The notes: a model not told the origin generated them from the letters alone. Counted from the first letter of the stretch, positions 3,739 to 56,016 are shown. The stretch is 64,000 bases of DNA from Candidatus Woesearchaeota archaeon (GCA_016179945.1 JACPCE010000001.1:9202-73201); one strand, 5' to 3'. A program made the numbers and translations.

Positions 3739-3850
3739 GGGGACGTAGCTCAATCTGTGGATAACACCGATTAAGGAGAGTACACAACTTATAAGTTGGC
3801 TTATACCGCTGAAGCCGGTGTTGTTATGGGTTCAAATCCCATCGTCCCCA
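3739..3850 (+). tRNA. tRNA-Phe (anticodon GAA at 3811-3813) with two putative introns, in the D-loop (~3756-3774) and at 26/27 (~3783-3803)
   Basis: Acceptor GGGGACG/CGTCCCC with A73. D-stem GCTC/GAGT. Anticodon arm TACCG-CTGAAGC-CGGTG. T-arm ATGGG-TTCAAAT-CCCAT. The gene is 112 nt against about 73 expected. The extra approximately 40 nt includes a palindrome CAACTTATAAGTTG at 26/27. Confidence 0.65.
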
Positions 3851-3894
3851 TATTCATCAAAACATTTAAATATAATACATAACAATTAAAACCC

Positions 3895-4410
3895 ATGCAA
3901 TCAAAAAAGGGTGCTATTGAGCTTTCTATAACAACAATAATAGTTGTTGTTATTGGTGTTACCCTCTTAATATTTGGCTTGGTCTTCGTAAGAGGTGTAT
4001 TTGAAAAAGTTACTACATTAACAGAAGATGCATTCAGAGCTGCAGAAAAAGAAGTTCAGCAAAGAATGGGTGCCAGTGATAAAATCTATGTATCTGGTGT
4101 TAATTTTGAAGTAGAATCTGGTAAATCAACAGTATTTACTGTGGGTGTACAAAACTTTGGAGAAGAAACAACAGTATCAAAATTTAAAATAGACATAGTT
4201 CCTGGAGATACTAAAATAAAGAAAGACGAATGGTTCACATTGCCACCAGAAGATAATCTAAAACCTGGAGACAAAAAAGGTTTTCCAGTTAAAGTTACAC
4301 TGCCTAAAGGTGCACCGCCAGGAAAAAGTTACACATTTACAATAAGAGTATTCAAAAACAATGAAGAATATGCCTCTCAAGCAATAATTGTTTCTGTAAA
4401 AGAAAGTTAA
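3895..4410 (+). CDS. Archaeal type IV pilin-like protein (class III signal peptide)
   Basis: N-terminus MQSKKGAIELSITTIIVVVIGVTLLIFGLVF has a basic residue, G/A, then a long hydrophobic helix. This is the prepilin-peptidase (FlaK/PibD) substrate pattern. Confidence 0.55.
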   Translation: MQSKKGAIELSITTIIVVVIGVTLLIFGLVFVRGVFEKVTTLTEDAFRAAEKEVQQRMGASDKIYVSGVNFEVESGKSTVFTVGVQNFGEETTVSKFKIDIVPGDTKIKKDEWFTLPPEDNLKPGDKKGFPVKVTLPKGAPPGKSYTFTIRVFKNNEEYASQAIIVSVKES

Positions 4411-4474
4411 AATAAACCCTTCAACTAGTTTGTAAATTATTTATTTGTATGATATTAAAAATGAAGAAAAAAAA

Positions 4475-4690
4475 TTAAACAGATTCTATTGAGCTTAGAT
4501 CTTCATCTACACCTTCAAGATCGTTGTCATTCAAGTCTGTATTCTCTTGGTCTATATTTTTAATATCATTATCTATTGGTGTGGTTACCTGTCCTGATGT
4601 TTGCTCAGCAACTTTCCTTTGCTGAGTGCAGGAAGTTAAAAAAACCAAAAATAATGAAAATAAAAACAAAAAAGTTAGTGCTTTTTTCAT
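4475..4690 (-). CDS. Small acidic secreted/lipoprotein-like protein
   Basis: Signal peptide MKKALTFLFLFSLFLVFLTSC (lipobox-like LTSC) followed by a D/E/N-rich tail. Confidence 0.35.
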   Translation of the reverse strand: MKKALTFLFLFSLFLVFLTSCTQQRKVAEQTSGQVTTPIDNDIKNIDQENTDLNDNDLEGVDEDLSSIESV

Positions 4691-4731
4691 ATTAACTCCA
4701 TGTTCTATTCCTATATTAAGCTTACGCTCAT

Positions 4732-5778
4732 TTATGAAGCACTTGCATTAGCACTAACTTCTACTTCAGTCTCTGCTTCATTCTCAGACAAGTCTTCTAA
4801 TTCACTCTCAGCTTCAGCACCAGCTTTGATCTTAATAGAAAATACTATCTTCTTAAGATCTTCATGTGCTAGTTTAAGTTCCTTATGAGCCTCAACCAAT
4901 AGTTTATGCCCTTCCTTAACTATCGCACTTGTATTGCCTTCAGCCTCAAATTTAACTCTTGCTTGTTCTACAAAATTCTTCGCATTGGCTATATGCATTC
5001 TGAAGCTTTCAAATTGTGGTTCTACACTTGAAACATCATAACCTTTTTGTTCTAATCTATCAAGTGTTTTTTCTAGTTTCTTTTCAAGGGATTCAGCTCT
5101 TTGAGTCGCAAATGAAAACTTATGAGACATTACAGTTCCTCTAGATTCCTCAAGATGTTCTTTAACGTCCTTCCACTCAGCTCTCAACTTTTTAGCTAAT
5201 TCCTTGACTTCTTCCTTTGTTGTTGCATTCTCTACTTCAACTTTATATTTAGCTAAAATCTCAAGTTTTGCGTTTACTGCTTCAAGCTTAGTTTCCAAGC
5301 TAGCTTTATTATCAGTCTGTGCCATTACTTCTTCAATCTTAGCCTTTCTTTTCTCCAAGACACGCTCCATTGTATTTATTGTTTTTAATAAATAACTCTT
5401 CGCATCTTCTTTCAAAAAGTTGTCCTTCCTTTTATTACACTCTTCGCTTGAATTATTATTACAAGCTTCTTTTACTTCTTTATGCTTTGCTCTAAAATCA
5501 ACTTTTGCTTTCACATAAGCTTCTTTTGATAGCATAAACTTTTCCTTTGTCTCTAGGAACTTAGTTCTTAATTCTACATGCTTTTTCATTGCAAGCTCTC
5601 TGTCCATCTTTACACTAACATTAGCTTTAACAATAGAACTAACTTCTTTGCCAAACTCGCTTAGTCCTTTCATTCTGTCTTGTTTCTCAGCCTTAACATC
5701 AGTATCTTCACTAGCTAATACAGGAAAGATACTAACTATAAATAAAGCCAAAACAACCAATGTCATTATTTTTTTCAT
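4732..5778 (-). CDS. Secreted Lys/Glu-rich coiled-coil protein
   Basis: N-terminal signal peptide MKKIMTLVVLALFIVSIFPVLAS. The rest is a heptad-like KE-rich sequence. Confidence 0.5.
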   Translation of the reverse strand: MKKIMTLVVLALFIVSIFPVLASEDTDVKAEKQDRMKGLSEFGKEVSSIVKANVSVKMDRELAMKKHVELRTKFLETKEKFMLSKEAYVKAKVDFRAKHKEVKEACNNNSSEECNKRKDNFLKEDAKSYLLKTINTMERVLEKRKAKIEEVMAQTDNKASLETKLEAVNAKLEILAKYKVEVENATTKEEVKELAKKLRAEWKDVKEHLEESRGTVMSHKFSFATQRAESLEKKLEKTLDRLEQKGYDVSSVEPQFESFRMHIANAKNFVEQARVKFEAEGNTSAIVKEGHKLLVEAHKELKLAHEDLKKIVFSIKIKAGAEAESELEDLSENEAETEVEVSANASAS

Positions 5779-5969
5779 TTTTTAACCTCCATTGTTAATT
5801 CAAATTTTTATTATGTTAAGATATAATACCTAACCTTCTTTATAAACATGCTTTCAAAATACTTAAATTAAAGCTTTATGAGAACAATTAAAACTTTACA
5901 AAGCTTTATTTTCCCTTTTTTTATTATTTAGAAAGATATTTAAGTCATTTTAGTTATAAAAAGATAAAA

Positions 5970-6641
5970 ATGAAGAAAACAATATTAATTTTGATTTTTA
6001 GTCTGTTTCTAGTACAAATAGTATCGGCAGCAACAATAAGCGGAACAGTCTATGATTTTTCATTAAAGAAAATAAATAATGTAATAATTGAAATTAATAC
6101 CCAGCCAATGCAAAGACAAATAGTAAAAGAAGGCTCTTATTCATTTGAAGTTCAAAAAGGTTCATATGCAATAGTCGCTAAAACAGCAGATAATATAATA
6201 ATTGCGAAGGAAAACATAATTGTAAGTGAAGAAGGTAAATATAATTTAGATCTAATTGGTTTTATTGACATAAGTGAAGAAGAAGAATTAGCAAACGATA
6301 CTAATATAGATATTAATGGTGACATTGATGTTGTAGAGCCAAATAATAATTATTGGTTAATAATATCTATTGTATTAATAATGGTTTTAATATTTGGCTT
6401 ATTTTACTATAAAAAAAGGAAAAAAGCTCCTGAAGTAAGTGAAGAAATAACTGATGATCTCACAGAAAAAATTCTAGATATAATGAAAAAAGAACAAGGA
6501 AGAATAACACAAAAAGAGCTTAGGAAAAAACTCCCTTATTCTGAAGCAAAAATAAGTTTAGTTCTTACTGAATTAGAAGCAATACAAAAGATAGAGAAAA
6601 TAAAAAAGGGTAGAAGTAATGTTATTATAATTAAAAAATAA
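5970..6641 (+). CDS. Membrane-anchored protein with a carboxypeptidase-regulatory-like beta domain outside and a C-terminal winged-helix domain inside
   Basis: Signal peptide; TISGTVYDF...GSYSFEV...GSYAIVAKT is CarboxypepD_reg-like. One TM helix LIISIVLIMVLIFGLFYY. C-terminal ITQKELRKKLPYSEAKISLVLTELEAIQKIEKIKKGRSNVIIIKK is HTH-like. Confidence 0.4.
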   Translation: MKKTILILIFSLFLVQIVSAATISGTVYDFSLKKINNVIIEINTQPMQRQIVKEGSYSFEVQKGSYAIVAKTADNIIIAKENIIVSEEGKYNLDLIGFIDISEEEELANDTNIDINGDIDVVEPNNNYWLIISIVLIMVLIFGLFYYKKRKKAPEVSEEITDDLTEKILDIMKKEQGRITQKELRKKLPYSEAKISLVLTELEAIQKIEKIKKGRSNVIIIKK

Positions 6642-6656
6642 TTATTGAATAAAAAC

Positions 6657-7253
6657 TTATGCAGCATTAGCCATACTGCTATAGGAAGAATAAGTATCAA
6701 TATTGCTCTTAGCGCTATTCAAATAATTAACTGCACTAACCAAATAGCCACAGACAGCATCCTTGCCCAATGAAGGCACAGGAAATCCTCTTTTTAATTT
6801 TTCTTCACCCCACATCTCAACTTGCAATATTTTTAAAATATCATAAACCTTATCATCATTTGCTTGAATATTTTTAGACCAAGCAATTATCATGTCTCTT
6901 AGCTGATCAGAATTTTTTATGCTATTTAAAGTATTTATTGTATTGTTCATTCTTTCATCAGCAAAAACAACACCGTTTCTTATTCCAGACCTCATATGAA
7001 TAAGTCTATTCTTAACTTCTTCATAATACAAAGGTTCATGCCTTCTGGCAGGCTGAAAATCTCTCATTGCCTCTAAAAATTTTCCTATATTCTCAGAAGC
7101 CAATTTTAAATTGTCTTTAGTAGATTTCAAATAACCATTAAGCTCTTCATCTGAAATCCTATTGCTGGAACTCATAAACCTGCTCTTTATAGTATCTAAA
7201 AATCCCATAACCATAGATACAGTTCTCTTGTTTAAATAAATTTCTCTACACAA
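6657..7253 (-). CDS. Hypothetical protein
   Basis: 198-aa ORF with a coding-like composition. The true start may be the internal MVMGFLD. Confidence 0.4.
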   Translation of the reverse strand: MCREIYLNKRTVSMVMGFLDTIKSRFMSSSNRISDEELNGYLKSTKDNLKLASENIGKFLEAMRDFQPARRHEPLYYEEVKNRLIHMRSGIRNGVVFADERMNNTINTLNSIKNSDQLRDMIIAWSKNIQANDDKVYDILKILQVEMWGEEKLKRGFPVPSLGKDAVCGYLVSAVNYLNSAKSNIDTYSSYSSMANAA

Positions 7254-7360
7254 AAATTAATTATACAAGATATAGAAAGCCTTTTAAATAATCCAAAATC
7301 ACCAATCTAAGAAAATCTAAAGGATTAACAAATCCACTTAACTCCGCGAGGAGCAAAAAT

Positions 7361-7786
7361 ATGGTAACTATATACGACGCAGATATACAAAAATCTATAG
7401 AAAAACTTAGCGATAGTTTAAAATCTCTTGTTAAAGCACCTGAATGGACAAAATTTGTTAAAACAGGGCAAAGCAAAGCAAGGCCTCCTGTTGATTCAGA
7501 CTGGTTCTACAAAAGAGCAGCTGCTATTTTAATCACAATATACAAAAGAGGGCCAATAGGTGTATCTAAACTAAGAGTTAAATATGGATCAAAGAAAAGA
7601 AGAGGACATAATCCAGAAAAATTTTACATAGCATCTGGTAAAATAATCAGAAATATACTTCAACAATTAGATAAGGCAAATCTTACATTGTATAAAAAAG
7701 AAGGGATAATAAAAGGCAGAATAATAACTGCTAAAGGAAAATCTCTAGTAAATAAAAACGCTGTAATAATGAAAAATGAGCAGTGA
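7361..7786 (+). CDS. rps19e: Ribosomal protein S19e
   Basis: MVTIYDADIQKSIEKL...PEWTKFVKTGQSKARPP...DWFYKRAAAILITIYKRGPIGVSKLR...GHNPEKFYIASGKIIRNILQQL matches the S19e consensus. Confidence 0.9.
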   Translation: MVTIYDADIQKSIEKLSDSLKSLVKAPEWTKFVKTGQSKARPPVDSDWFYKRAAAILITIYKRGPIGVSKLRVKYGSKKRRGHNPEKFYIASGKIIRNILQQLDKANLTLYKKEGIIKGRIITAKGKSLVNKNAVIMKNEQ

Positions 7787-8042
7787 GGATGAAGCAAGAA
7801 AAATTCAGGAAAAAATACTAGAGATTGAAACAATGGCAAAAAAATTCATGACACAAGAAGCAATATCACGCTATGGCACACTAAAAAGTGCACACATACA
7901 AAAAGCACTTCAGGCAATAGCATTAATTGCACAGCTCGCATCGCAAAATCAGATAAAAGAAAAAATAACAGATGAGCAGTTTAAGCAATTGCTTATGAGA
8001 TTAGAACCAGAGAAAAAAGAAACAAGGATAATAAGGAAATAA
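7776..8042 (+). CDS. PDCD5/TFAR19-like DNA-binding protein (COG2118)
   Basis: 88 aa. It sits in the conserved archaeal position between S19e and L39e. Helical, with [36 protein letters not shown]. Confidence 0.7.
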
Positions 8043-8043
8043 A

Positions 8044-8217
8044 ATGAGCCGTTATAAACCAAAAGCGAAAAAATTACGTTTGGCAAAGAAAGGAAAACAA
8101 ACTAGATGGGCTCCTCTTTGGTTAGTTCCAAAACTAAATAAAGGCCTTAGAAAAATTCATCCATCAAGATATACTACGAAGAAAAGAAGCTGGAGAAAAA
8201 CTAAAACTAAAGCATAA
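8044..8217 (+). CDS. rpl39e: Ribosomal protein L39e (absent from the ORF track, 57 aa)
   Basis: The translation [57 protein letters not shown] matches L39e. Confidence 0.85.
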
Positions 8218-8753
8218 TGGCAGAGGAAAAGATATTCACAATTGGTTTAAGAAAAGAATTTTTAAAGAAACCAAAATATAGAAGGGCTAAAAAAGCAGTT
8301 ACTGCTGTAAAGGAGTTTATTATACAACACTTAAAAGTAAAAGAAGTTAAAATAGGTCCGAACTTAAATTCAAAAATCTGGGAACGTGGAAAAAGAAATC
8401 CCCCTTCAAAAATAAAAGTTAAAGGTTTGGTAGAAGAAGGTATAGCCTATGTAGAGCTTCCTGAATTTGAATTTAAGCCAAAACCTAAAGAAGAAAAGAA
8501 GCTTGAAAAAACATCTAAAAAAGAGTCAGTTGAAGTAGCAAAAGAAGAGCAAAAGAAAGAACAGGAAAAAGAATCAATAAAAGAATTAGCACATGAAGAA
8601 AAAGTAAAAGAGAAGAAAGAACACCATCATGAACCTATAGAGGTTCCGCATGCTGAAATTAAGCAGCCTGAAAAAGACATAGAAAATAAATCTAAGAAAG
8701 GAAGAGTTGTTGGAAGTACAGGTAAAAAAGGCGCAAAACAAGCCAAGCCTTAA
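8217..8753 (+). CDS. rpl31e: Ribosomal protein L31e with a long Lys/Glu-rich C-terminal extension
   Basis: FTIGLRKEFLKKPKYRRAKKAVTAVKEFIIQHLKVKEVKIGPNLNSKIWERGKRNPPSKIKVKG is an L31e core of about 90 aa. About 85 further aa are KE-rich. Confidence 0.85.
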   Translation: MAEEKIFTIGLRKEFLKKPKYRRAKKAVTAVKEFIIQHLKVKEVKIGPNLNSKIWERGKRNPPSKIKVKGLVEEGIAYVELPEFEFKPKPKEEKKLEKTSKKESVEVAKEEQKKEQEKESIKELAHEEKVKEKKEHHHEPIEVPHAEIKQPEKDIENKSKKGRVVGSTGKKGAKQAKP

Positions 8754-8755
8754 AT

Positions 8756-10576: not shown

Positions 10577-10579
10577 AAA

Positions 10580-14164: not shown

Positions 14165-15283
14165 ATGAAAGCAATTGCAACATGTATAAAAGGATTAGAA
14201 GAAATAACTCAATTAGAAATAAAAGAAATACTAAAGAAAAAATCAGAAATTATTATCCCGTCAAGAATAGCTTTTAATGTAAAAGAGGATAAAGAATTAG
14301 CTAATTTTGTATACAACACAAGAAGTTCTATAAAGGTTTACAAATTAATTAATCATGACAATTTCTCAGATTTAGATGAAATATTAAATAAAGTAAAGAA
14401 AATAAAATTTCCAAAAATTAAAAGTCCTTTTGTAGTAAGATGTGAAAGAATTGGAGAGCACAACTTTAATTCAATAGATGTAGAAAAAGAAATTGGTAAT
14501 ATTATAAACAAAGATAATAAACTAAAAGTAGATCTAAAAAATCCAACAACTATATTAATTATAGATATAGTAAGTAATAAATTTTTTTTAGGAATAGACT
14601 ACACAGGAATAAAACTAACTAAAAGAAACTACAGAATAAAATTGCTTCCTAATTCAATAAATTCCGCTCTAGCTTATTCAATGTTAAGAATATCAGAAAT
14701 AAAAGAAAAAGACACAATTTTAGATCCTATATGTAGATCTGGAGAAATAATGATAGAAGCAGCATTATACTTGCAAAAAATAGCAAATGGATTAAAACTA
14801 TTAGATCAACTAGCATTTAATAAATTATTAAAATTTAATCCAAAAAATATAATAAAAACAAAGAAGTTAAAAATATATTCAATAGACTCATCACAAAACA
14901 GCTTAAAAAGTGCAGAAATAAATGCAAAAATAGCAAATATATACAAAAATATTATTTTTAGTCGTTATGAATTAGAGTGGTTAGATACAAAATTAGATAA
15001 AAATTCAATAGATAAAATAATAACCTTCCCTCAATATCCTACAAATAACCTCCCTACGCAAGAAGTTGAAAAAATTTACAAAGAATTATTTTATCAAGCA
15101 GAATTTATAATTAAAAAAAATGGAATAATAACCATATTAACACCAGTTCCAGAATTAATAGAAAAATATGCGAACTTAAGAAACTTCAAAAAAGAAAAAG
15201 AATATAAAATAAATTATATGCATCAAAATTTCTCAATATTAAAATTGAAAAATGAAATTTGTAATAAACAAAAAAATATTTGA
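14165..15283 (+). CDS. THUMP-domain RNA methyltransferase (Trm14/TrmN-like, COG0116)
   Basis: N-terminal ferredoxin-like plus THUMP region. C-terminal Rossmann MTase (ILDPICRSGEIMIEAAL; ...ITFPQYP). Confidence 0.6.
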   Translation: MKAIATCIKGLEEITQLEIKEILKKKSEIIIPSRIAFNVKEDKELANFVYNTRSSIKVYKLINHDNFSDLDEILNKVKKIKFPKIKSPFVVRCERIGEHNFNSIDVEKEIGNIINKDNKLKVDLKNPTTILIIDIVSNKFFLGIDYTGIKLTKRNYRIKLLPNSINSALAYSMLRISEIKEKDTILDPICRSGEIMIEAALYLQKIANGLKLLDQLAFNKLLKFNPKNIIKTKKLKIYSIDSSQNSLKSAEINAKIANIYKNIIFSRYELEWLDTKLDKNSIDKIITFPQYPTNNLPTQEVEKIYKELFYQAEFIIKKNGIITILTPVPELIEKYANLRNFKKEKEYKINYMHQNFSILKLKNEICNKQKNI

Positions 15284-15956
15284 AAAATTCGAGGGTTTAA
15301 ACCTTGGAGTAATTATAGCTAAAAATATTAGCAACAAAGGAATAAATGAAGAAATATTAAACAAAATCAAAGAAAAAGAAGAATTCATAAGAAAAAACTA
15401 CAAAACTGAGACACTGTCAGAGCATCCAAAAATAAACTGTTGGAGAAAAGTTTACTCAATATTTGGGGGAGAACCAAAGAAAAATAAATCTTCAATAGAA
15501 TCATTATATAGAAGAATTTTAAGTGGAGAAAAAATAAGACATATAAATATTTTAGTAGATATTTATAACCTATTATCAATAAAATATATGCTTCCGATTG
15601 GAGGAGAAGATATTGATAAAATGCAAGGGGATATAGAACTAACTTTTGCAAATTCAAATGAAGCACCTACAATACTTTTAGGAGAAAAAGAGCCAAGACA
15701 ACCACATGAAGGAGAAGTTATTTACAAAGATAAAATTTCAGCAATATGCAGAAGATGGAACTGGCGTGAAGCCGAAAGAACAAAATTAACAGAAGAAACA
15801 AAAAATTGTATTTTAGTTATAGAAGGGTTACATCCAACTACAAAAGAAGGAATAGAAATTGTCACAAAAGAGTTGAAGGAATTAACAGAAATATTATGTG
15901 GTGAAAAAATAAGTTATTGTATTCTAGATAAAAACAAAACAGATATAGAATTTTAA
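15252..15956 (+). CDS. Stand-alone B3/4 domain protein (COG3382, PheT editing-domain-like)
   Basis: The B3_4-like core NILVDIYNLLSIKYMLPIGGEDIDKMQGDIELTFA...LTEETKNCILVIEG. It is paralogous to the C-terminal domain of the MetRS at 51723..53855. Confidence 0.6.
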   Translation: MKFVINKKIFEKFEGLNLGVIIAKNISNKGINEEILNKIKEKEEFIRKNYKTETLSEHPKINCWRKVYSIFGGEPKKNKSSIESLYRRILSGEKIRHINILVDIYNLLSIKYMLPIGGEDIDKMQGDIELTFANSNEAPTILLGEKEPRQPHEGEVIYKDKISAICRRWNWREAERTKLTEETKNCILVIEGLHPTTKEGIEIVTKELKELTEILCGEKISYCILDKNKTDIEF

Positions 15957-15996: not shown

Positions 15997-16404
15997 ATGT
16001 CAAAAGAAGAAGAAATATTTAATCAAAGATTAAAGAAAATAGAAGAAATAAAAAACATGGGAATAAATCCATATCCTTACAAATTTGACCAGAAAAATCA
16101 TGCTAATGAAATTCTTGAAAAATACAAAAACCTGGAAAAAGAAGAGAAAACTAAAGATAGCGCCTCATTAGCTGGAAGAATAATGAGTTTAAGGGAAATG
16201 GGAAAAGCTTCTTTTGGTCACATTCAGGATGTATCTGGAAAAATCCAATTTTATATTAGGGAAGATCAAGTTGGAGAAAAAACATACAGTTTATTCAAAA
16301 AATTAGACTTAGGCGATCTTATAGGAATAGAAATTCTTAATGCTTCAAAAAATCTGGGAAATTTTTTTTCTTCTGGTAAACTTCAAGTCGTAAAAACTTC
16401 TTAA
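15997..16404 (+). CDS. lysS: Lysyl-tRNA synthetase class II, N-terminal anticodon-binding (OB) fragment of a disrupted gene
   Basis: RIMSLREMGKASFGHIQDVSGKIQFYIREDQVGEKTYSLFKKLDLGDLIGIEI aligns with the E. coli LysS N-domain. The ORF ends at a TAA just after a poly-T(8) run. Confidence 0.75.
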   Translation: MSKEEEIFNQRLKKIEEIKNMGINPYPYKFDQKNHANEILEKYKNLEKEEKTKDSASLAGRIMSLREMGKASFGHIQDVSGKIQFYIREDQVGEKTYSLFKKLDLGDLIGIEILNASKNLGNFFSSGKLQVVKTS

Positions 16405-16599
16405 AAGCGCCAAAAAGATCAAATTTACAAATTTCCTGCATAGACGCCCATCGAGTGTACTGAACCAGCAGCTGTTGTTGAGGTAAGAATGTCGAAGCGT
16501 ACAAGTTGGCAGAGTTGTTTTAGATCTGAATAGTCGAGCATATCTAAAGTTTATCACAGAGAATTTATTGAATTTATTACAAAAATTAATGCATGGAAT
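16405..16599 (+). other. GC-rich 195-nt segment interrupting lysS, with three in-frame stops (TAA, TAG, TAG). Either a degraded core region or an inserted structured RNA.
   Basis: Same reading frame as both lysS pieces. Local GC is about 45-50% against about 28% in the flanks. The last approximately 25 codons (FIEFITKINAWNMQMYLRIA) still resemble LysRS ([20 protein letters not shown]). Confidence 0.5.
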
Positions 16600-17865
16600 A
16601 TGCAAATGTATTTAAGAATAGCTTATGAACTTGATCTAAAAAGATTAATAACTGGTGGTTTTGAAAAAATTTATGATCTAAGCTCTTGTTTCAGAAATGA
16701 AGATGCAGATAGAACCCATAATCCAGAATTCGCAATGATGGAAATACAATGGGCTTACGCAGATTATAACGATGCTATGAAATTAACAGAAGAATTGTGG
16801 GAATACGTAGCCAAAGAGGTTTTAAGAACAACAATTATTGAATATGCAGGAAATAAAATTAACTTAAAAGCACCATGGAATAGACTTACTATTAAAGATG
16901 CACTAAAAGAATTAGGTAATATTGATACTGACAAATTAAAAGATAAAGAATTAGTAGAATTAATAGAAAAAAACAAAATAGAATATGAAGGAAATCCAAC
17001 AAGAGGAGAAATGATTATGTTATTATTTGAAAAATTATGTGAACATAAATTAATTCAACCAACACATATAACAGACCATCCAAAAGAATCTTGTCCACTA
17101 GCAAAAGCACATAGAAAAGATCCAAAATTAATAGAAAGAATTGAACCATTTATTAATGGATTTGAAGTGGGTAATTGTTACACAGAACTTAATGATCCAA
17201 TTATACAAAGAAAACTTCTTGAAGAACAAGCTAAAAAAGGCAGGGGTGGTGATGAAGAAGCACACCCAATGGACGAGGATTTTATACAATCAATGGAATT
17301 TGGATTACCTCCAAACACAGGAATTGGTGTTGGTGTAGACAGAATGGTTATGTTGCTAACAGGTGCTGAATCAATTAGAGATATAATATTGTTTCCAACA
17401 ATGAAACCAGAACAATTACTTGAAGACCAAACAGGAAAGGCAAAAGAAACAAAATTAGCAGTTGCAGTTCTTAACAAAGGGATTAAAATGAAAAAATGGG
17501 AAGAAATGAATACTATAGCGCATCTAAATGCAGCATTTGGTGCAAGAATAGGAAAGCAATTATTCTTGCAAGATAAAATAAAAACTAAAGATAATAAAGA
17601 AATTAATCTTAATATACAGCATGCAATCTTGATAAAAGAAGCAATATCAAACAAAGATATAATTAATTTAATTAAGCAGGCAGAAGAAAAAGAATTAGAA
17701 GTAGCTGAATTTACAAGAGAAATGATAATTACTACAGATGATAAAAAAGTAATTTCTCTTACACAAAATAAAAATTTAAATGATGTTGAATATCTTGGGG
17801 CTTTAATTTTCGGAGAAAAAGCAGATGTTGAAAAAATTACTAAAAATTTTAAATTGTATGAATAA
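16600..17865 (+). CDS. lysS: Lysyl-tRNA synthetase class II catalytic-core fragment (motifs 2 and 3) fused to a C-terminal Pth2-like domain
   Basis: MYLRIAYELDLKRLITGGFEKIYDLSSCFRNEDAD is motif 2. GIGVGVDRMVMLLTGAESIRDIILFP is motif 3. The C-terminal approximately 160 aa (KLAVAVLNKGIKMKK...KITKNFKLYE) resemble the peptidyl-tRNA hydrolase 2 fold. Confidence 0.75.
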   Translation: MQMYLRIAYELDLKRLITGGFEKIYDLSSCFRNEDADRTHNPEFAMMEIQWAYADYNDAMKLTEELWEYVAKEVLRTTIIEYAGNKINLKAPWNRLTIKDALKELGNIDTDKLKDKELVELIEKNKIEYEGNPTRGEMIMLLFEKLCEHKLIQPTHITDHPKESCPLAKAHRKDPKLIERIEPFINGFEVGNCYTELNDPIIQRKLLEEQAKKGRGGDEEAHPMDEDFIQSMEFGLPPNTGIGVGVDRMVMLLTGAESIRDIILFPTMKPEQLLEDQTGKAKETKLAVAVLNKGIKMKKWEEMNTIAHLNAAFGARIGKQLFLQDKIKTKDNKEINLNIQHAILIKEAISNKDIINLIKQAEEKELEVAEFTREMIITTDDKKVISLTQNKNLNDVEYLGALIFGEKADVEKITKNFKLYE

Positions 17866-47191: not shown

Positions 47192-47213
47192 TTGTTAGAT
47201 TGCAACCTTTATT

Positions 47214-48365: not shown

Positions 48366-48533
48366 TTTATATTTAGAATAATCCTTATTTATATTACTTA
48401 CTCATCATTTCTTTGTATTTCTTTTCACCAAATAAAACCCAGTATATTACAAACAAGAATATTATTATCAATATTAAAATTAACCAAGGGCTTAACATAA
48501 AAGAATAAAAATTTTCTTTTTTAAAAAGCTTTC

Positions 48534-48941: not shown

Positions 48942-49014
48942 AGTTCTAAAGATATATAGTTATTTTAATAGTTTTCTAATTATAATTTTTATATCAAAAG
49001 ACAAGAATCCACAA

Positions 49015-49347
49015 TTATTTAGGATCTTCAACTTTAATTGCATAAGTATGGCCTTGATAACAAAAACCTAAATATCTTCCTTCTGGACTTATGAAATATG
49101 AAGCATTTAGATATTCTGGTGGATCAACTCTGAGTATATTTTTTGTATCCCTCGGCATTAATACTAAACCCAAGGAATTATCACCATAAAAACCTAAATC
49201 GTCTGGTTGATCTTTGGCTATTGCTATCTCTAACAATGAATCAGGAAGAACTTCTAATGCTTTTTCCAAAATAGGCACAGGGGTTCTGCTCCCAACAAGC
49301 AACACTTTTGCGCCAAACTTTCTTACTAACTTCGTTTCTACTGTCAT
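49015..49347 (-). CDS. Hypothetical protein
   Basis: 110-aa ORF. Confidence 0.4.
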   Translation of the reverse strand: MTVETKLVRKFGAKVLLVGSRTPVPILEKALEVLPDSLLEIAIAKDQPDDLGFYGDNSLGLVLMPRDTKNILRVDPPEYLNASYFISPEGRYLGFCYQGHTYAIKVEDPK

Positions 49348-49475
49348 ATAAATTTAAAACAAAGATAAAAATTTAAAAGGTTAACTATCTTTTATTAATT
49401 TTATTTTGATAATATAGCAATAGAATTTGACATTAAAATCAAACAGTTTATAAAATATAAATTTATTAATTTATT

Positions 49476-50087
49476 ATGAAACTAGAAGTCCCTTTTTATA
49501 TTCAAGGAATAAATGAATGTGGTCCTGCAGCATTACAAATGGCTTTAGAATTTCTAGGAGAAAAACACGAAAAGGAAGAAATAAAGAAACTAATTGAAAG
49601 TGAAAGTACTGGTGCAACATGGACTATAGGTCTAGCAAAAGCTTCTGCACAATTAGGATTCAAAACAGAATTTTATAGTAAATCTCTAGGATTCAATCCG
49701 GAAAACTTTGATTTGGAATATTACCAAAGGGAAACAGATGGAGCAGAAAATGTAGAAATAAAAATCAAAAAATTACAAGCAGAATGTATAAAATATAAAG
49801 TAGAAATGGAAGAGAGAGAAATTCCTCTAGATGAAATAATATCGAAAATAAATGAAAATTGCACTGCAATTGTTTTAATAGATTGGGGTAAAATAAAAAA
49901 CGTTGATAGATACATTGGACATTTCTTACCAATAGTGGGATTTGATGAAGAAAATATATACTTGCACCAGCCAGGTCCAAAAGATCCTGAAGCAAATTTC
50001 AAAATAAATAAATTTTTATTTGACACTGCAAGAAAATCAAAAGGAACAGATGAAGATATTATTTTTATTCATAGGAAAATGCACTAA
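49476..50087 (+). CDS. Peptidase C39-like (papain-fold) domain protein
   Basis: VPFYIQGINECGPAALQMALEFLG has the Cys in a C39 / Peptidase_C39_2-like context. Confidence 0.45.
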   Translation: MKLEVPFYIQGINECGPAALQMALEFLGEKHEKEEIKKLIESESTGATWTIGLAKASAQLGFKTEFYSKSLGFNPENFDLEYYQRETDGAENVEIKIKKLQAECIKYKVEMEEREIPLDEIISKINENCTAIVLIDWGKIKNVDRYIGHFLPIVGFDEENIYLHQPGPKDPEANFKINKFLFDTARKSKGTDEDIIFIHRKMH

Positions 50088-50190
50088 CTGGGATTTGAAC
50101 CCAGATCAAAACCTTTTTCCTTAAATTTATTCAAACTTTTTATAAAAAGTTTGTTGGGAAGGTTTCATGCTGCCGTTACACTATTAGTGC
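50080..50190 (-). tRNA. tRNA-Gly (anticodon CCC) with a 40-nt canonical-position (37/38) intron at ~50115-50154
   Basis: Minus-strand RNA reads GCACTAA-TA-GTGT-AACGGCA-GCAT-G-AAACC-TTCCCA-[intron with an 11-bp perfect palindrome CAAACTTTTTA/TAAAAAGTTTG]-A-GGTTT-TGAT-CTGGG-TTCAAAT-CCCAG-TTAGTGC-A. The 3' end overlaps the stop of the 49476..50087 CDS. Confidence 0.6.
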
Positions 50191-50246
50191 ACAATACTTT
50201 AAATAATAATTAACTATTTAAACTTTTAATAAATTTTTCAAAATAT

Positions 50247-50356
50247 AGCCCGTTCGTCTAGCGGCCAAGGATAAAGTTAATTTAAAACTTCCTTTGAGGG
50301 GACTCTGGATGAATAAGAGAAATCCTCTGACGGAGGTTCAAATCCTCCACGGGCTA
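50247..50356 (+). tRNA. tRNA-Gln (anticodon CUG) with two putative introns, at 26/27 (~50274-50297) and 37/38 (~50309-50321). CCA is encoded (to 50359).
   Basis: Acceptor AGCCCGT/ACGGGCT (A1-U72, Gln-like) with A73 and CCA. D-arm GTCT-AGCGGCCAA-GGAT. Anticodon stem GGGGA/TCCTC with loop CTCTGG|A. T-arm GGAGG-TTCAAAT-CCTCC. 110 nt against about 73 expected. A palindrome AAGTTAATTTAAAACTT lies in the first insert. Confidence 0.55.
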
Positions 50357-50487
50357 CCATAATATTTATATAAAACAACAAATTAATAAAATCATGGCAA
50401 ACATAGCAAAAATAAAAATAAATAATTTCTTACTAGCTATGTCTATGATGTTTTAATAGCCTTAATATTTTTTAGGAGGCAACTACA

Positions 50488-51726
50488 ATGAACAAACAAC
50501 AAATAGAAGAAGGAACTTTTATATATTCACAAGAACCAAAAGATTTTCAAAATTTTCGTAAACTTTCTGGACACGACACAAGGGAGCTACGCCAGATTTA
50601 TAAAGAAGAAAATAAATTAAATTATATGCAAAAAAAAGAAATACCAAAAGATAAATTAATAAAACTATATAAAAATAAAAATTTATCAAGCCGTGAAATT
50701 GGAAAGAGGTTAAATTGTGATCATAGTGTAATTTTAAAAAGACTTAAAGAGAATAATATAAAAATAAAAAATCGCAAGGAAAAAATAAATATCAAAAAAA
50801 CAAAATTATATAATCTTTATAATAAAGAAAAATTATCAATATATAAAATAGCAAAATTATGCTCTTGTAGTAGTACATGCATATTATGCAAATTAAGAGA
50901 GTTTAAAATAAAGACTAGAAAAAAGAAAGAAGTAAAGATAAGTAAAAAACAACTAAAAGATTATTATATAAAAGATAAAAAATCCCTGTCTGAAATAGCT
51001 AAAATAAAAAAATGTAGTGTTTCAACAATTCTTAAATTAATGAAAAAATTCAATATCAAAAGAAGAACTTTAAGTGAATCCATTATGAAATATAAAAAAA
51101 GAAATTTCGATGGTAAGAAAAATCTTAAAGCTTATATGACTGGCTTTAGAATAGGAGATTTAAACGTTACAAAGGAAAGCCATCAAATAAAATTAAAAAC
51201 AAACACAACAAAATTAGACCAAGTTCATTTGGTAAAAGAAAATTTCGGAAATTACGGACATTTCTATTTAAAAGAAAGAGGGGGTGAATATGAAATGTCT
51301 TGTTTATTAGACAAATCATTTAAATTTTTAATTAAAAAACATAAAAATATTCCGAAATGGATAATAAAAAACAATGAGTGTTTTATAAATTTTCTAGCAG
51401 GTTATACAGATGCTGAAGGAAATATTGGCATATATGATAAAAGAGCAAGATATAGGGTTGGATCTTACGATAAAGAAATATTATATGAAATTCATGAAAA
51501 ACTTCAAAGTATGAAAATAAATGGAACATTTATATTAGAAACACAAGCTGGAATTTATAAATATGGAAAATTGAATGGAGATTTCTGGAGAATAAATATA
51601 AGTAAAAAGGAAGAACTTTTAGCCTTAGTTAGAACTTTAAAACCGCATATTAAACATAGAAAAAGATATAATGATTTAATAGCAGCAGAAAATAATATTA
51701 TAGAGAGAATTGGAGCAATAGCATGA
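50488..51726 (+). mobile_element. Free-standing LAGLIDADG-family endonuclease with four N-terminal HTH-like repeats
   Basis: Two LAGLIDADG-like motifs (YMTGFRIGDLN and FLAGYTDAEGNIGIYD). Four repeats of about 40 aa of the form ...LY.K..LS..EIAK...CS.STILK.LKE.NIK.... GGAGG SD. The end overlaps the metG start (ATGA). Confidence 0.7.
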
Positions 51727-53855
51727 AAAAAAAGAAGAAATTTTACATAACAACCCCGATATATTATGTTAATGATAAACCTTCTGTTGGAACAGCTTAT
51801 ACAACAGTAACTGCAGACATAATAGCAAGATGGCATAGATTAAAAGATGAAGATGTTTTCTATCTTACAGGATTAGATGAAAATGCACAAAAAACAGTAC
51901 AAGCTTCAATTAAATTAGGTTTTAAAGATATAAAAAAATTTACAGATTTTATGGCAGAAGAATATCTAAAAACTTGGAAAGCTTTAAACATAAGCAATGA
52001 TGATTTCATAAGAACAACAGAAGAAAGACATCATAAATTGGTAACTGAATTTGTAGAAAAAATAAAGAAAAAAGGAGATATTTACAAAGGAACTTATTCT
52101 GGTTTATATTGTGAAGGATGTGAAGCTTTTAAAACTGAAGATGATTTAGTAAATGGATTGTGTCTAGATCATTTAAAGGAACCAAAATACATAGAAGAAC
52201 AAAACTATTTCTTTAAGTTAAGTAAATACCAAGATAAAATTTCAAAACACATAAAAGAAAATCCAGATTTTATCCAACCAAATTCTAGAAGAAATGAAAT
52301 AATTAATTTCCTAAATAAAGGTTTAAAAGATCTCAGTATAACAAGACAAAGTATGAACTGGGGAATTCCATTCCCAGGAGATGAAAAAACGCACTTATAT
52401 GTCTGGTTTGATGCTTTGACAAATTACTTACATCCTAAAGAATATTGGCCTGCAAATATCCATTTAATGGGAAAAGATATAGTGAGGTTTCATGCCCTAA
52501 CTTGGATTGGTATGCTTCTATCTGCTAATTACAAATTACCAAAGAAAGTTTTTGCACATGGTTTCTTCACAGTAAATGGTCAAAAAATGAGTAAAACTTT
52601 AGGTAATATAATTGATCCAGTTTACCTAGTAAATAAATATGGAGTGGATGCTTTAAGATATTTCTACGCAAGAGAAATTCCATTTGGCAATGATGGAGAT
52701 TTCTCAGAAGAATCTTTAAAGACAAGACTAAACAATGAATTAGCAAATGAATTAGGAAATTTAGTATCAAGAACATTAGCAATAATAGAGAAAAAATTAA
52801 ATTCGGAAATAAGAAAAGATTCAACAGATAAAACATTATTTAAAAATTTAGATGTTAAAAAAATAGATAAGTTTATGGAAACTCTAGAGATACATAATGC
52901 TATAGCAGCAATTATGGGTTTTGTGCAAGATTGCAATTCTTATATAAATGATAATGCACCATGGCAGATAGAAGAAAAATCAAAACTAAATAAAATATTA
53001 TATAATTTAACAGATGCAATCAGAATAATTTCAATTTTAATATATCCGTTTATGCCTTCAACATCTGAAAAAATAAACAAGCAATTACAAATAGAAAAAA
53101 ATCAGACTTTAGAATACTGCAAGCCAGGATTGCTAAAAAACCTATTCATAAAAAAAGGAGATATATTATTTACAAAAGTTCTTACAAAAGAAGAAGAGCA
53201 ATATGAAGCAAAGTTTAATAACACAAAGTGTTATGTTGACCAAGATGTTGTAAAACTAGGAATTAAAGTTAAGTTTGCTGAGTTAATAGGATTAAATATA
53301 AAAAGAAAGCATATGGGCCTAGAAAAATTGAAAGATGAAATAGAACATAATTTCAAAGTAAATGAAAAAGTTCTAGAAGGTTATAATAGTTATTATAAAA
53401 AATTAGACATAAAAAATGGAAAATGTTCTGTTTATAATTTAATAGAACTAGTCCAAAAAGGCGGGAAACTTCCAACAATAAATACAGCAGTAGATTCTTA
53501 CAATTTAGTTTCACTTAAAAAATCTTTAGTTGTTGGTGCACATGACAGAGAAAAAATAAAAGGCAGTGTAAGGTTCAAGATTTTAAATGGAACAGAATTT
53601 TACATTCCATTATTCAAAACAGAAAGAGAAGAAGTAATTACAGGAGAATTTGGTTGTGTAGATGATGAAAAAGTTCTTTGCAGACTAGATATTAAACAAG
53701 GAGACCAGACCAAAGTAACTGAAGAAACTAAAAATCTAATTCTTTATGTACAAGGTAATGAATTTACTTCAGATCAATATTTAAATGAAGCATTGGAAGA
53801 AATATGTAATTTAATAATAAAATTCTGTGGTGGAGAATATAGAATGATAGAATGA
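51723..53855 (+). CDS. metG: Methionyl-tRNA synthetase fused to a C-terminal B3/4 (PheT-editing-like) domain
   Basis: The class I core (PIYYVNDKPSVGTAY; KMSKS = QKMSKTLGN). The C-terminal approximately 200 aa (TINTAVDSYNLVSLKKSLVVGAHDREKIKG...VTEETKNLILYVQGNE) are paralogous to the stand-alone B3/4 protein at 15252..15956. Confidence 0.8.
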   Translation: MKKKKKFYITTPIYYVNDKPSVGTAYTTVTADIIARWHRLKDEDVFYLTGLDENAQKTVQASIKLGFKDIKKFTDFMAEEYLKTWKALNISNDDFIRTTEERHHKLVTEFVEKIKKKGDIYKGTYSGLYCEGCEAFKTEDDLVNGLCLDHLKEPKYIEEQNYFFKLSKYQDKISKHIKENPDFIQPNSRRNEIINFLNKGLKDLSITRQSMNWGIPFPGDEKTHLYVWFDALTNYLHPKEYWPANIHLMGKDIVRFHALTWIGMLLSANYKLPKKVFAHGFFTVNGQKMSKTLGNIIDPVYLVNKYGVDALRYFYAREIPFGNDGDFSEESLKTRLNNELANELGNLVSRTLAIIEKKLNSEIRKDSTDKTLFKNLDVKKIDKFMETLEIHNAIAAIMGFVQDCNSYINDNAPWQIEEKSKLNKILYNLTDAIRIISILIYPFMPSTSEKINKQLQIEKNQTLEYCKPGLLKNLFIKKGDILFTKVLTKEEEQYEAKFNNTKCYVDQDVVKLGIKVKFAELIGLNIKRKHMGLEKLKDEIEHNFKVNEKVLEGYNSYYKKLDIKNGKCSVYNLIELVQKGGKLPTINTAVDSYNLVSLKKSLVVGAHDREKIKGSVRFKILNGTEFYIPLFKTEREEVITGEFGCVDDEKVLCRLDIKQGDQTKVTEETKNLILYVQGNEFTSDQYLNEALEEICNLIIKFCGGEYRMIE

Positions 53856-54037
53856 AAGATGAATTAAAAATTATAATTAATATTTCTAAAGAAGCTGGAA
53901 AAATTCTAATGAAATATTATAAAAAGGAGCACACTAAAGAAATAAAAAATGATGATAAATATGACTTTGTTACAAATGTAGATAGAGAAGCAGATATTTA
54001 TATTGTAGAAAAAATAAATACTCTGCCTTTTATATAA
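53852..54037 (+). pseudogene. N-terminal remnant (61 codons) of an inositol monophosphatase / SuhB-family gene
   Basis: ISKEAGKILMKYYKKEHTKEIKNDDKYDFVTNVDREADIYIVEKI matches the IMPase N-terminus (...AG..I...F......K....D.VT..D...E..I...I) and then stops. Confidence 0.55.
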
Positions 54038-54055
54038 AAATAAAAAAGAAGGGAC

Positions 54056-54283
54056 TTATTTCATCCCTTTAAATCCCCACCATAGCATTTTTAATGCACA
54101 TAAAAATACTAGCAAACCAAATGAATGCTCAAATGTAAACCATCCCTTTGGCCAGATCATCAATAGACCTAGAACCGCAGCAACTACACCCCATAATGCG
54201 CATACCCATCCAGAACCCATACACTTGCAAGGGTCAGAATGACACATAGGGCACATTCCCATTCCCATATCTTTTTTTGCCAT
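54056..54283 (-). CDS. Small Cys-motif membrane protein
   Basis: MCPMCHSDPCKCMGSGW followed by two TM helices. Confidence 0.45.
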   Translation of the reverse strand: MAKKDMGMGMCPMCHSDPCKCMGSGWVCALWGVVAAVLGLLMIWPKGWFTFEHSFGLLVFLCALKMLWWGFKGMK

Positions 54284-54389
54284 ATTAATAGCACCTCCAA
54301 TTTTATGAATAAATCCTGGAATTACTGGTTTAAAAGCCTTTCCATTAGGTTTAACATAAAATAAAATAATACACTAATTTATATAAAAA

Positions 54390-55022
54390 TTAATCTATAA
54401 ATTTTAAAATATCAACCAAATTATCAGTATCAACTACAAAATCAGCTGCCTTTTTTAAATTATCACTAAAGGCATTAAAAGCAATAGACCTTCCAACAAT
54501 TTTAAATGCTTCAATATCAGCATCACTGTCTCCTATATACACGACATCTTTCAAATTTACACCTAAGTCGCTAGCCAAATGTCTAACGATTTCAGCCTTC
54601 TTCTCTTTGCCAGCGCCTATTGGCCAGATAAATTCTCCACTAACTTTACCATTAGCAATAATTAGTTCATTGGCATAAATATGATCAATGCCATAGTCTC
54701 TCTGAACCCTTCTAGCCACATCAATACTAGAAGCGCTTATTATAGCAGTAATGACATCTTTCTTCTTGAGCTCTCTAAATACAGTGTCAACTCCATGGAT
54801 ATATTCTAGGCTATTAACTAATTCATAATAAGGTTTAGCATCCCTGCCTTTCCATAGCTTAACAACAACCTCTTCAACCAATTTATTATAATCTGAATGC
54901 AAATATTTCTCAGTTAATTTTTTACCTTCTTCTAAAGTTCCAAAAACTTTATGTAGTTCCATCCAGAAATTAATGTCTTTAAAAATTACACCATCCATAT
55001 CAAAACAAATTAATTTATACAT
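54390..55022 (-). CDS. HAD-superfamily hydrolase (phosphoserine-phosphatase-like)
   Basis: Motif I FDMDGVIF. Motif IV GDSDADIEA. Confidence 0.8.
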   Translation of the reverse strand: MYKLICFDMDGVIFKDINFWMELHKVFGTLEEGKKLTEKYLHSDYNKLVEEVVVKLWKGRDAKPYYELVNSLEYIHGVDTVFRELKKKDVITAIISASSIDVARRVQRDYGIDHIYANELIIANGKVSGEFIWPIGAGKEKKAEIVRHLASDLGVNLKDVVYIGDSDADIEAFKIVGRSIAFNAFSDNLKKAADFVVDTDNLVDILKFID

Positions 55023-55103
55023 AAAATAAAAGAATTAATATTGCTTAAATTAGTTTCTAAAGAAATATATTTTATAAAATTAAATAAAAAAAGAAAACTA
55101 AAC

Positions 55104-55280
55104 CTAATGTTTAGCTCCGCCTACAGAGAATAATCCCCATAACAAAACATAAACTCCAACTACAGTCCAACCATTATACCAAGTTGGCGCAGATTTCCAT
55201 AATGCTGCTACCAAGAATAATACACCAAATACCAAATTCATAACAGCACACTTCTTACAAACGCTCATTCCGCATTCCAT
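55104..55280 (-). CDS. Small Cys-motif membrane protein (58 aa, absent from the ORF track), paralog of 54056..54283
   Basis: Hand translation gives MECGMSVCKKCAVMNLVFGVLFLVAALWKSAPTWYNGWTVVGVYVLLWGLFSVGGAKH. Confidence 0.4.
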   Translation of the reverse strand: MECGMSVCKKCAVMNLVFGVLFLVAALWKSAPTWYNGWTVVGVYVLLWGLFSVGGAKH

Positions 55281-55351
55281 TATTTCATCACCTCATTTTT
55301 TATAAAACTTATATAGAATTCTATGTTTATAGAGATATATAAAATTAATGG

Positions 55352-55531
55352 TGGGCCTGGCCTGATTTGAACAGGCGACCTTTATCGGAAACAATTAGTT
55401 TCTCTCGATTTCGAAACCCTATTAAGAGAGTTAGACTCTCAGTTCTCACCTCCGAAGAGAGAGAATAGGATATCAGTCGAATGAGCAAATCATAATGATT
55501 TTGTGCTCCAGCCAAGCTAAGCTACAGGCCC
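55352..55531 (-). tRNA. Intron-containing tRNA (~180 nt, CCA encoded to 55349) with about 105 nt of intronic insert. The isotype is unresolved; the arms look Ile/Met-like.
   Basis: Minus-strand RNA reads GGGCCTG-TA-GCTT-AGCTTGGCTG-GAGC-A...[insert with palindrome AAATCATTATGATTT and CUGA / AUGAUU-like motifs]...CCGATAA-AGGTC-GCCTG-TTCAAAT-CAGGC-CAGGCCC-A-CCA. The acceptor stem pairs perfectly over 7 bp. Confidence 0.55.
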
Positions 55532-55885
55532 ATAAATTAAAGAGCTTAAAAGAATCTTTATAAAGATTTTGGGAGTGATTTATAGAAAGAATAAGGATCT
55601 AATTCTCCTTTAAGAATTAATTCTCTCTGTGGTAAATTAGTATAATGTGGACAAAAACCAAACTTTTTCCAAACTAAATATTTAGTTAAATGTTTTCTAG
55701 AATTGAAGCCTGTTAATTTCATCCATAATTCCAATTGTTCTTTACCTAAAATTTCCAATTGATTTGAAATATAATATTTATCATAACGCTTTTTGGAAAT
55801 TCATACAAAAAATTAACAGCAAAATTAAATTTTGCTGATAGATTTTCAGTTTGTATATAAAATATTTAAAAAAGAAAAATAAAAA

Positions 55886-56016
55886 CGCCTCAGGGCAGAC
55901 TCGAACTGCCGACCCCATGATCTCTGCTCAGAAAGTAACAGTTTCACAGGTCTTAAATAGAACACATGTGCTCTACCTGTTGCTCGCATTTTCAAAACGC
56001 TCTGAGCTACTGAGGC
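55886..56016 (-). tRNA. tRNA-Arg (anticodon UCU, tentative) with two putative introns, in the D-loop (~55978-56001) and at 37/38 (~55922-55957)
   Basis: RNA reads GCCTCAG-TA-GCTC-AG[AGCGTTTTGAAAATGCGAGCAACA]GGTA-GAGC-A-CATGT-GTTCTA[36 nt]A-TCATG-GGGTC-GGCAG-TTCGAGT-CTGCC-CTGAGGC-G. A poly-U follows the 3' end. Confidence 0.5.

Follow-up and report, generated by a model that had tools for sequence, protein, structure and literature searches.

Five tRNA genes of a Woesearchaeota archaeon, very probably interrupted by 11 short introns of the bulge-helix-bulge type

Background

Transfer RNA (tRNA) genes with several introns have been described in the Thermoproteales, in Pyrobaculum, Thermofilum and Caldivirga (Sugahara 2007/2008 and Fujishima 2010, via PMC4033280 and PMC8450103). 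Archaeal tRNAs carry up to three introns of the bulge-helix-bulge (BHB) type (PMC8450103, PMC4033280), and the record for a genome is held by P. calidifontis with 71 introns in 46 genes, the mean of the Thermoproteales being 0.84 per gene (PMC8450103). For closely spaced crenarchaeal introns, sequential splicing has been described (PMC8450103). Here we analyse a stretch of 64,000 nucleotides, referred to as the window, from Candidatus Woesearchaeota archaeon (GCA_016179945.1 JACPCE010000001.1:9202-73201), in which five tRNA genes are very probably interrupted by short introns of this type. Positions are counted from the first letter of the window.

The genes in the window resemble those of the Thermoproteales in having up to three short BHB or relaxed introns per gene, at the canonical and at many non-canonical sites. 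The introns of the Thermoproteales also occur in the D-loop, the anticodon stem, the variable region and the T-loop; they are gained and lost rapidly and, when closely set, may need sequential removal. However, the Thermoproteales are hyperthermophilic crenarchaea with a heterotetrameric splicing endonuclease (EndA) that has a Crenarchaea-specific loop, whereas the host here is a woesearchaeon of low G + C content (29% for the window). The similarity lies in the working of the system, not in lineage.

Within the DPANN archaea, including Woesearchaeota RBG_13_36_6 and Pacearchaeota, a marked rise in tRNA disruption was reported, together with an incomplete tRNA set when tRNAscan-SE 2.0 was used (PMC5829648). 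In the same study Kaneta et al. (2018) called for manual curation of DPANN tRNA genes (PMC5829648); they gave proportions per genome, whereas exact introns, positions, BHB classes and polymorphism among orthologues are given here. Of 208 complete genomes of Nanobdellota surveyed in 2026, only 96 had all 20 tRNA specificities, and loss, split genes and detection failure were left undecided as the cause. A preprint (10.64898/2026.05.13.725050) reports tRNAs as missing, by tRNAscan-SE, from many complete genomes of the Woesearchaeales and Pacearchaeales.

Another DPANN system, that of ARMAN-2 / Micrarchaeum, has relaxed BHB motifs (hBH and bulge-helix-loop, BHL), non-canonical sites and a broad-specificity epsilon2 EndA (PMC3239211, PMC3488258, PMC12397907). 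It belongs to another DPANN phylum, epsilon2 having been reported from Micrarchaeota only. A red alga likewise carries three ectopic BHB-like introns in one tRNA gene, but it is a eukaryote in which some genes are permuted. In the split or permuted tRNA genes of Nanoarchaeum, Caldivirga and Cyanidioschyzon the exons lie at different loci or in a changed order, whereas all exons in the window are colinear within 110-180 nt.

Results and discussion

Five interrupted tRNA genes

An earlier note on this DNA, made from the sequence alone, had listed five overlong tRNA genes of 112, 111, 110, 180 and 131 nt, all of them interrupted, with intact acceptor and T arms. All five loci were recovered at the same coordinates and lengths, and all five genes are indeed interrupted. 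With the isotypes resolved below, they are:

3739..3850, plus strand: tRNA-Phe(GAA) gene, 112 nt; 74 nt after removal of two introns
50080..50190, minus strand: tRNA-Gly(CCC) gene, 111 nt; mature tRNA 71 nt
50247..50356, plus strand: tRNA-Gln(CUG) gene, 110 nt; mature tRNA 73 nt
55352..55531, minus strand: tRNA-Ile(GAU) gene, 180 nt; mature tRNA 75 nt
55886..56016, minus strand: tRNA-Asn(GUU) gene, 131 nt; mature tRNA 73 nt

At every locus the acceptor stem is perfect over its 7 bp, and the T arm is canonical and intact. A scan of the window for acceptor and T arms returned only these five loci and gave no match in 19 of 20 shuffles. A scan of the window that was independent of the T arm (acceptor pairing together with U8, G10 and A14) yielded no further convincing tRNA. 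The 3' CCA is encoded in the genome for tRNA-Gln (50357-50359, plus strand) and tRNA-Ile (55349-55351, minus strand), not for Phe, Gly and Asn.

Standard tools perform poorly on these genes. Default ARAGORN found none of the five in the window, and the Rfam tRNA model scored above threshold for two (Gly, 50.7 bits; Phe, 40.1 bits); the Gln, Ile and Asn genes gave no Rfam tRNA match even at E<=10. ARAGORN with intron search (option -i), which the earlier note had proposed as a check, did locate all five loci, but each was forced into a parse with a single anticodon-loop intron and the isotypes were wrong in four genes (Ile-TAT, Leu-GAG, Met-CAT and Gln-CTG); the Gly gene was returned as Gly(CCC) with one 40-nt intron. 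When the introns described below were removed in silico, default ARAGORN called all five products full-length canonical tRNAs (71-75 nt), with Phe(GAA), Gln(CUG), Ile(GAU) and Asn(GUU) among the calls.

Resolution of the introns

For each gene, all deletions of up to three segments, each of at least 10 nt, that leave a strict cloverleaf were enumerated blind to BHB geometry. A strict cloverleaf was defined as having all D-stem and anticodon-stem pairs, U8, A14, the D-loop GG, Y32, U33, R37 and a variable region of 4-5 nt. The BHB geometry scored at every pair of positions comprised helix H of 4 bp, bulges of 3 nt, helix h between the exons and helix h' within the intron, the cut being assumed after the second nucleotide of each bulge.

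The cloverleaf alone was far from decisive, being compatible with 237 to 5486 deletion sets per gene. Random site pairs passed the BHB test at a rate of 0.6-0.9% (strict) or 0.8-1.5% (relaxed criterion). For Phe, Gln and Ile we accept a single parse, because only one cloverleaf set passes BHB at every junction; the Ile set does so by the relaxed criterion only. Two sets passed for each of Gly and Asn. There we chose the set with the stronger BHB and with agreement to the orthologue at locus L004 (contig RIFCSPHIGHO2_02_FULL_30_43, the nearest to the window by its methionyl-tRNA synthetase, MetRS). Both Asn solutions have the anticodon GUU and differ by a 1-nt shift of the D-loop intron. All five spliced products obey the strict rules (stem pairing, U8, A14, GG, U33 and R37). 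The use of ARAGORN as a filter of enumerated BHB deletions was dropped, as it was too permissive and passed hundreds of junk cloverleaves.

In total 11 introns of 13-61 nt were resolved, one gene having one, two genes two and two genes three:

3758..3774, plus strand: Phe intron 1, 17 nt, at D-loop position 18/19 (between G18 and G19); strict hBHBh' (H=4, h=3, h'=2)
3784..3804, plus strand: Phe intron 2, 21 nt, at 27/28 (product unchanged if placed at 28/29); HBh' (H=4, h=0, h'=6)
50115..50154, minus strand: Gly intron, 40 nt, at canonical 37/38; hBH (H=4, h=7, h'=0)
50273..50296, plus strand: Gln intron 1, 24 nt, at 25/26 (product unchanged if placed at 26/27); strict BHB (H=4, h=2, h'=5)
50309..50321, plus strand: Gln intron 2, 13 nt, at canonical 37/38; strict BHB (H=4, h=6, h'=2)
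55481..55502, minus strand: Ile intron 1, 22 nt, at 27/28; strict BHB (H=4, h=2, h'=6)
55410..55470, minus strand: Ile intron 2, 61 nt, at 37/38; canonical AAA bulge at the 3' site, relaxed internal loop at the 5' site (H=3/4, h=5)
55382..55403, minus strand: Ile intron 3, 22 nt, at 43/44 (where the anticodon stem meets the variable region); HBh' (H=4, h=0, h'=5)
55980..56001, minus strand: Asn intron 1, 22 nt, at D-loop position 15/16; HBh' (H=4, h=0, h'=6)
55943..55964, minus strand: Asn intron 2, 22 nt, at 30/31, which lies within the anticodon stem; BHB (H=4, h=2, h'=1)
55922..55935, minus strand: Asn intron 3, 14 nt, at canonical 37/38; BHB in the primary transcript H=4, h=1, h'=2

The non-canonical positions in the window are thus 15/16, 18/19, 25/26, 27/28, 30/31 and 43/44. 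For 10 of the 11 junction pairs the pre-tRNA sequence shows a helix H of 4 bp between 3-nt bulges with at least one flanking helix (the larger of h and h' being at least 2); the 5' site of the 61-nt Ile intron is relaxed. This supports the earlier proposal of multi-intron tRNAs in a DPANN lineage with BHB introns at canonical and non-canonical sites. The count of that proposal did not survive, since it had eight introns and three genes with two each. Its D-loop inserts in Phe and in the 131-nt gene were found again (18/19 and 15/16), and the joint search also placed introns at 37/38 in Gly, Gln and the 131-nt gene. The inserts that had been put directly after position 26 lie at 27/28 (Phe and Ile) and 25/26 (Gln). 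The three palindromes quoted for them are present, each of them being the intron-internal helix h' of a BHB motif: CAACTTATAAGTTG in Phe intron 2, AAGTTAATTTAAAACTT in Gln intron 1 and AAATCATTATGATTT in Ile intron 1.

Most of the non-canonical introns share a common design, consisting of 1 nt, a hairpin (h'), 4 nt that pair with the exon, and 2 nt (usually AA). The 4-nt element makes helix H with its complement in the exon, which is located 2 nt upstream of the 5' splice site, and the design puts both splice sites in 3-nt bulges 4 bp apart in the primary transcript. In multi-intron tRNA sets of the Thermoproteales type, different tRNA species can have similar introns (intron transposition). 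By eye, Phe intron 2 and Ile intron 1 have in common the site 27/28, GAGY-A-C as exon context and GCTYAT as the 3' end.

Identity of the 131-nt and 180-nt genes

The gene of 131 nt had been read in the earlier note as tRNA-Arg(UCU), with a D-loop intron and one intron at 37/38, and the 180-nt gene had been left without an isotype, with a single insert after position 26. Motifs TTCTA and TTTCTGA do occur within the 131-nt gene, and ARAGORN -i calls the L004 orthologue Arg(TCT) with one 36-nt intron. The Arg parse, however, is possible only with a U31-U39 mismatch plus G32 and in the absence of BHB, or with an "intron" of 7 nt, and at locus L003 the second TCT is changed to ACT. The joint search of this gene yielded GUU alone: this reading has a perfect arm, CATGA-CTGTTAA-TCATG, with BHB at both junctions, and the syntenic gene at locus L001 is Asn(GUU) with the identical CTGTTAA loop and no intron at 30/31. 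The gene is read here as tRNA-Asn(GUU) with introns at 15/16, 30/31 and 37/38, and intron 2 contains the decoy TTCTA loop that pointed to Arg. For the 180-nt gene the insert near position 26 stood, at 27/28, but the introns at 37/38 and 43/44 had been missed; the gene is fully resolved as Ile(GAU) with three introns and matches the intron-less Ile gene of L003. Taken as a whole, the parse with eight introns is very improbable.

The anticodon region of the 131-nt gene has three decoy loops, and the alternative readings built on them were rejected: Arg(UCU) from the first TTCTA, Arg(UCU) from TTTCTGA with introns of 29 nt and 7 nt, and His(GUG) from CTGTGAA. The grounds were stem mismatches, the lack of BHB, the implausibility of a 7-nt intron, or the change of TCT to ACT in L003.

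The 61-nt intron of tRNA-Ile

RNAfold places the 5' site of the 61-nt Ile intron in a BHL-like internal loop, and the 3' AAA bulge adjoins the anticodon stem. The intron is predicted to fold into a three-way junction that carries two hairpins, one of them capped by UUCG. In L004 this fold is kept by two compensatory base-pair changes. The intron gave no Rfam match (E<=10) and showed no proper C/D/C'/D' arrangement by eye. A C/D-box small RNA within it was set aside, there being no clear boxes by eye and no Rfam match. The intron may give rise to a functional RNA.

Proposed splicing

We consider it very likely that the window contains five colinear Woesearchaeota tRNA genes, for Phe, Gly, Gln, Ile and Asn, interrupted by 11 short introns that are spliced by protein at BHB motifs. 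The intron boundaries, the BHB geometry, the restoration of the cloverleaf and the conservation in relatives were established computationally. By analogy with the established archaeal tRNA-splicing pathway, EndA would cut after the second bulge nucleotide on both sides, and an RtcB-type ligase would join the exons into canonical tRNAs. For close-set introns, such as those of Asn at 30/31 and 37/38, the second full motif would form only after the first intron is out. After removal of Asn intron 2, the BHB of intron 3 becomes H=4, h=5, h'=2. Because helix h at 37/38 grows from 1 to 5 once the 30/31 intron is removed, the modelled structures suggest ordered splicing, 30/31 before 37/38.

Several points weigh against this reading. 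Four introns have relaxed HBh' or hBH motifs that lack a closing helix on one side, and a broad-specificity enzyme would be needed for them. At the 5' site of the 61-nt Ile intron the rigid BHB test is not passed (H=3/4, h'=0). Several intron boundaries can slide by 1 nt with the product unchanged. Finally, neither EndA nor RtcB was found among the ~60 open reading frames (ORFs) of the window by Pfam, with weak matches considered to E=1 for ten family-less ORFs.

No EndA was found either by tBLASTn in the window and 117 related loci with a query of M. jannaschii EndA. A relaxed-specificity splicing endonuclease, as predicted earlier, is a reasonable expectation for this intron load. The earlier note had named heterotetrameric and epsilon-type enzymes. 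According to Kaneta et al. (2018), DPANN lineages including a Woesearchaeon have an alpha4-type EndA with an extra L3 loop, a type to be considered besides the heterotetrameric and epsilon2 ones (PMC5829648).

Comparison with relatives and turnover of introns

MetRS of the window (51723-53855, plus strand) shares 68-85% identity with proteins on contigs of Candidatus Woesearchaeota metagenome-assembled genomes (MAGs), and these contigs carry syntenic tRNA genes at matching places. Because of this identity and synteny the host is placed, by sequence comparison, among the Woesearchaeota as a DPANN archaeon. A second set of relatives was recruited through the class-I aminoacyl-tRNA synthetase (aaRS) adjoining tRNA-Phe.

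The spliced tRNAs of the window align to intron-less orthologues with 0-1 gaps. Spliced Phe is identical to the Phe gene of L046 at 57 of 74 positions and spliced Gln to that of L047 (7272-7344) at 67 of 73, both with no gaps; spliced Ile is identical to the syntenic Ile(GAU) of L003 at 59 of 75. These intron-less genes score 66.4, 55.4 and 63.8 bits in Rfam, respectively.

The Asn gene of L004 is without exactly the 22 nt of the predicted D-loop intron and reads GCTC AGCAGGTA GAGC. At 15/16 the window, L003 and L001 carry unrelated hairpins, with only the design in common. Asn intron 2 is present in L004 and L003 and absent from L001, and intron 3 is kept in all three. The anticodon stem of the L003 gene shows a compensatory change, from CATGA/TCATG to CTTGA/TCAAG.

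In Phe, unrelated introns of 24 nt (L041) and 18 nt (L042) occupy the D-loop site, and comparison with these two loci shows that helix H of intron 1 covaries, exon AATC and intron GATT being replaced by AACC and GGTT. Phe intron 2 is absent from the orthologues in L041, L042 and L046. In a related Woesearchaeon (L047), a tRNA-Phe(GAA) gene of 145 nt on the minus strand, upstream of the aaRS match, is interrupted three times: at 25/26, within the variable region and, with strict BHB 4,5,4, at 59/60 of the T-loop. Throughout, introns at the same site are unrelated in sequence and the hairpin is always formed.

For Gly, the L004 orthologue has the same architecture. The Gln gene has introns at 25/26 and 37/38 in the window and L004, at 15/16 and 37/38 in L003, at about 21/22 and 37/38 in L005, at 37/38 only in L001, and none in L047; Gln intron 1 is accordingly present in L004 and absent from L001 and L047. 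The Ile gene has introns at 27/28, 37/38 and 43/44 in the window and L004, at 30/31 and 37/38 in L001, and none in L003. Ile intron 1 is kept in L004 with a changed hairpin, and Ile intron 3 is conserved in L004 and absent from L001 and L003.

Because intron content differs among relatives at Ile, Gln and Phe, these comparisons point to frequent gain and loss of introns among close relatives. The variation in presence, absence and position hints at mobility, and the inserts might on that account be taken for self-splicing group I/II introns, or for footprints of mobile elements, that are handled without EndA. Their length is far below the size of a ribozyme core, they match no Rfam intron family at E<=10, terminal repeats are absent from them and their geometry is that of an EndA substrate, which makes this origin extremely improbable. 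Group I/II introns in tRNA genes, in contrast, have a ribozyme core of hundreds of nucleotides and an RNA family.

It could also be argued that the loci are decaying pseudo-tRNAs or insertion-riddled relics with junk inserts and without a functional product. The failures of default ARAGORN (0/5) and Rfam (2/5), the 61-nt Ile insert without a clean 5' bulge, and a tRNA-like remnant nearby at 56399-56465 fit such decay. Removal of every insert, however, gives a perfect cloverleaf, with BHB at 10 of 11 junction pairs where chance is <1.5% per site. Exons are conserved and introns have diverged, with compensatory changes preserving both tRNA and BHB helices; the same interrupted genes occur in independent assemblies at 68-85% protein identity, and the Phe orthologues share a conserved upstream A/T box. 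We therefore hold decay to be very unlikely, and functional genes with BHB introns remain our preferred reading.

The window has 11 introns in five genes (2.2 per gene) and L004 has eight in four (2.0 per gene), densities that, in a tiny sample, lie above both the Thermoproteales mean of 0.84 and the 71/46 of the record genome.

Upstream boxes, neighbouring genes and remnants

The genes for tRNA-Gly (minus strand) and tRNA-Gln (plus strand) are divergent and only 56 bp apart (50191-50246), and a AAAGTTTAAATAG box lies between them. The sequence AAAAGNTTTAAGAATA is common to the Phe orthologues, at about -40 to -27 (3690-3738 in the window; upstream regions of L041 and L042). Both boxes are probably promoter elements of the B recognition element (BRE)/TATA type.

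At 56399-56465 on the minus strand lies a 67-nt element with tRNA-like acceptor ends (GCCCTGT...GCAGGGC-G) and without a D or T arm. The 5' end of tRNA-Asn is overlapped by a start-less ORF at 55973-56280 (minus strand) that has a PD-(D/E)XK-like motif (YFPDF...IESTEWK). The element and the ORF may be the remnant of a decayed tRNA copy or of an integrated element.

The gene content of the window is archaeal and includes a ribosomal-protein operon, topoisomerase VI A and B, Hjc, Cbf5, primase and S19e/L31e. MetRS bears a C-terminal B3_4 domain, and a stand-alone B3_4 protein is encoded at 15252-15956 (plus strand). The nearest relatives of this MetRS outside the Woesearchaeota are bacterial (Latescibacterota and Saccharibacteria, 42-46% identity), with 27% identity to that of a Nitrososphaeraceae archaeon. 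Because the bacterial enzymes are closer than that of the Nitrososphaeraceae, the sequence identities suggest that a bacterial-type MetRS was acquired horizontally.

GC-rich intergenic patches in the window correspond to small ORFs for L34e, a lipoprotein and a Cys-rich membrane peptide. Two Cys-rich membrane peptides (75 and 58 aa; 54056-54283 and 55104-55280, both on the minus strand) flank the HAD hydrolase and tRNA region and explain the GC-rich "intergenic" patches.

A class-II aaRS gene looks disrupted (15997-17865, plus strand). An OB-fold ORF (15997-16404) and an ORF with the catalytic core and DUF2000 (16600-17865), in the same frame, are separated by ~195 nt in which three in-frame stops (TAA, TAG and TAG) occur and the motif region is shortened. 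The gene may have become a pseudogene or been split, or the assembly may be wrong here. The gap (~16.4 kb) was rejected as a BHB intron: it is as long as the coding region that is missing and contains in-frame stops, so that excision would delete essential motifs.

Conclusions

BHB introns in multi-intron tRNA genes and tRNA disruption in DPANN archaea were already known, and this lineage is a further case. Noteworthy are the exact gene structures (for example introns at 30/31 and 43/44), the high density in the sampled genes, the fast turnover and a possible link to the tRNAs reported as missing. A genome-wide intron record cannot be claimed from five genes. A wider proposal is put forward tentatively, and we think it rather doubtful as a whole: that the lineage of the window and L004 carries the densest tRNA-intron load known (about two per gene genome-wide, against the record of 1.54), with fast turnover and a DPANN EndA that is neither heterotetrameric nor epsilon2, and that hidden multi-intron genes, not loss or splitting, would explain the "missing" tRNAs.

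Multi-intron tRNA genes such as these evade routine annotation, and the resolved three-intron genes offer a concrete, testable explanation for the tRNAs reported as missing from DPANN genomes. They can serve as training examples for intron-aware tRNA models beyond Crenarchaeota and Thaumarchaeota. The presence and absence of introns between genomes at 68-85% protein identity provide snapshots of intron gain and loss, and the intron load constrains what the splicing endonuclease of this lineage must cut.

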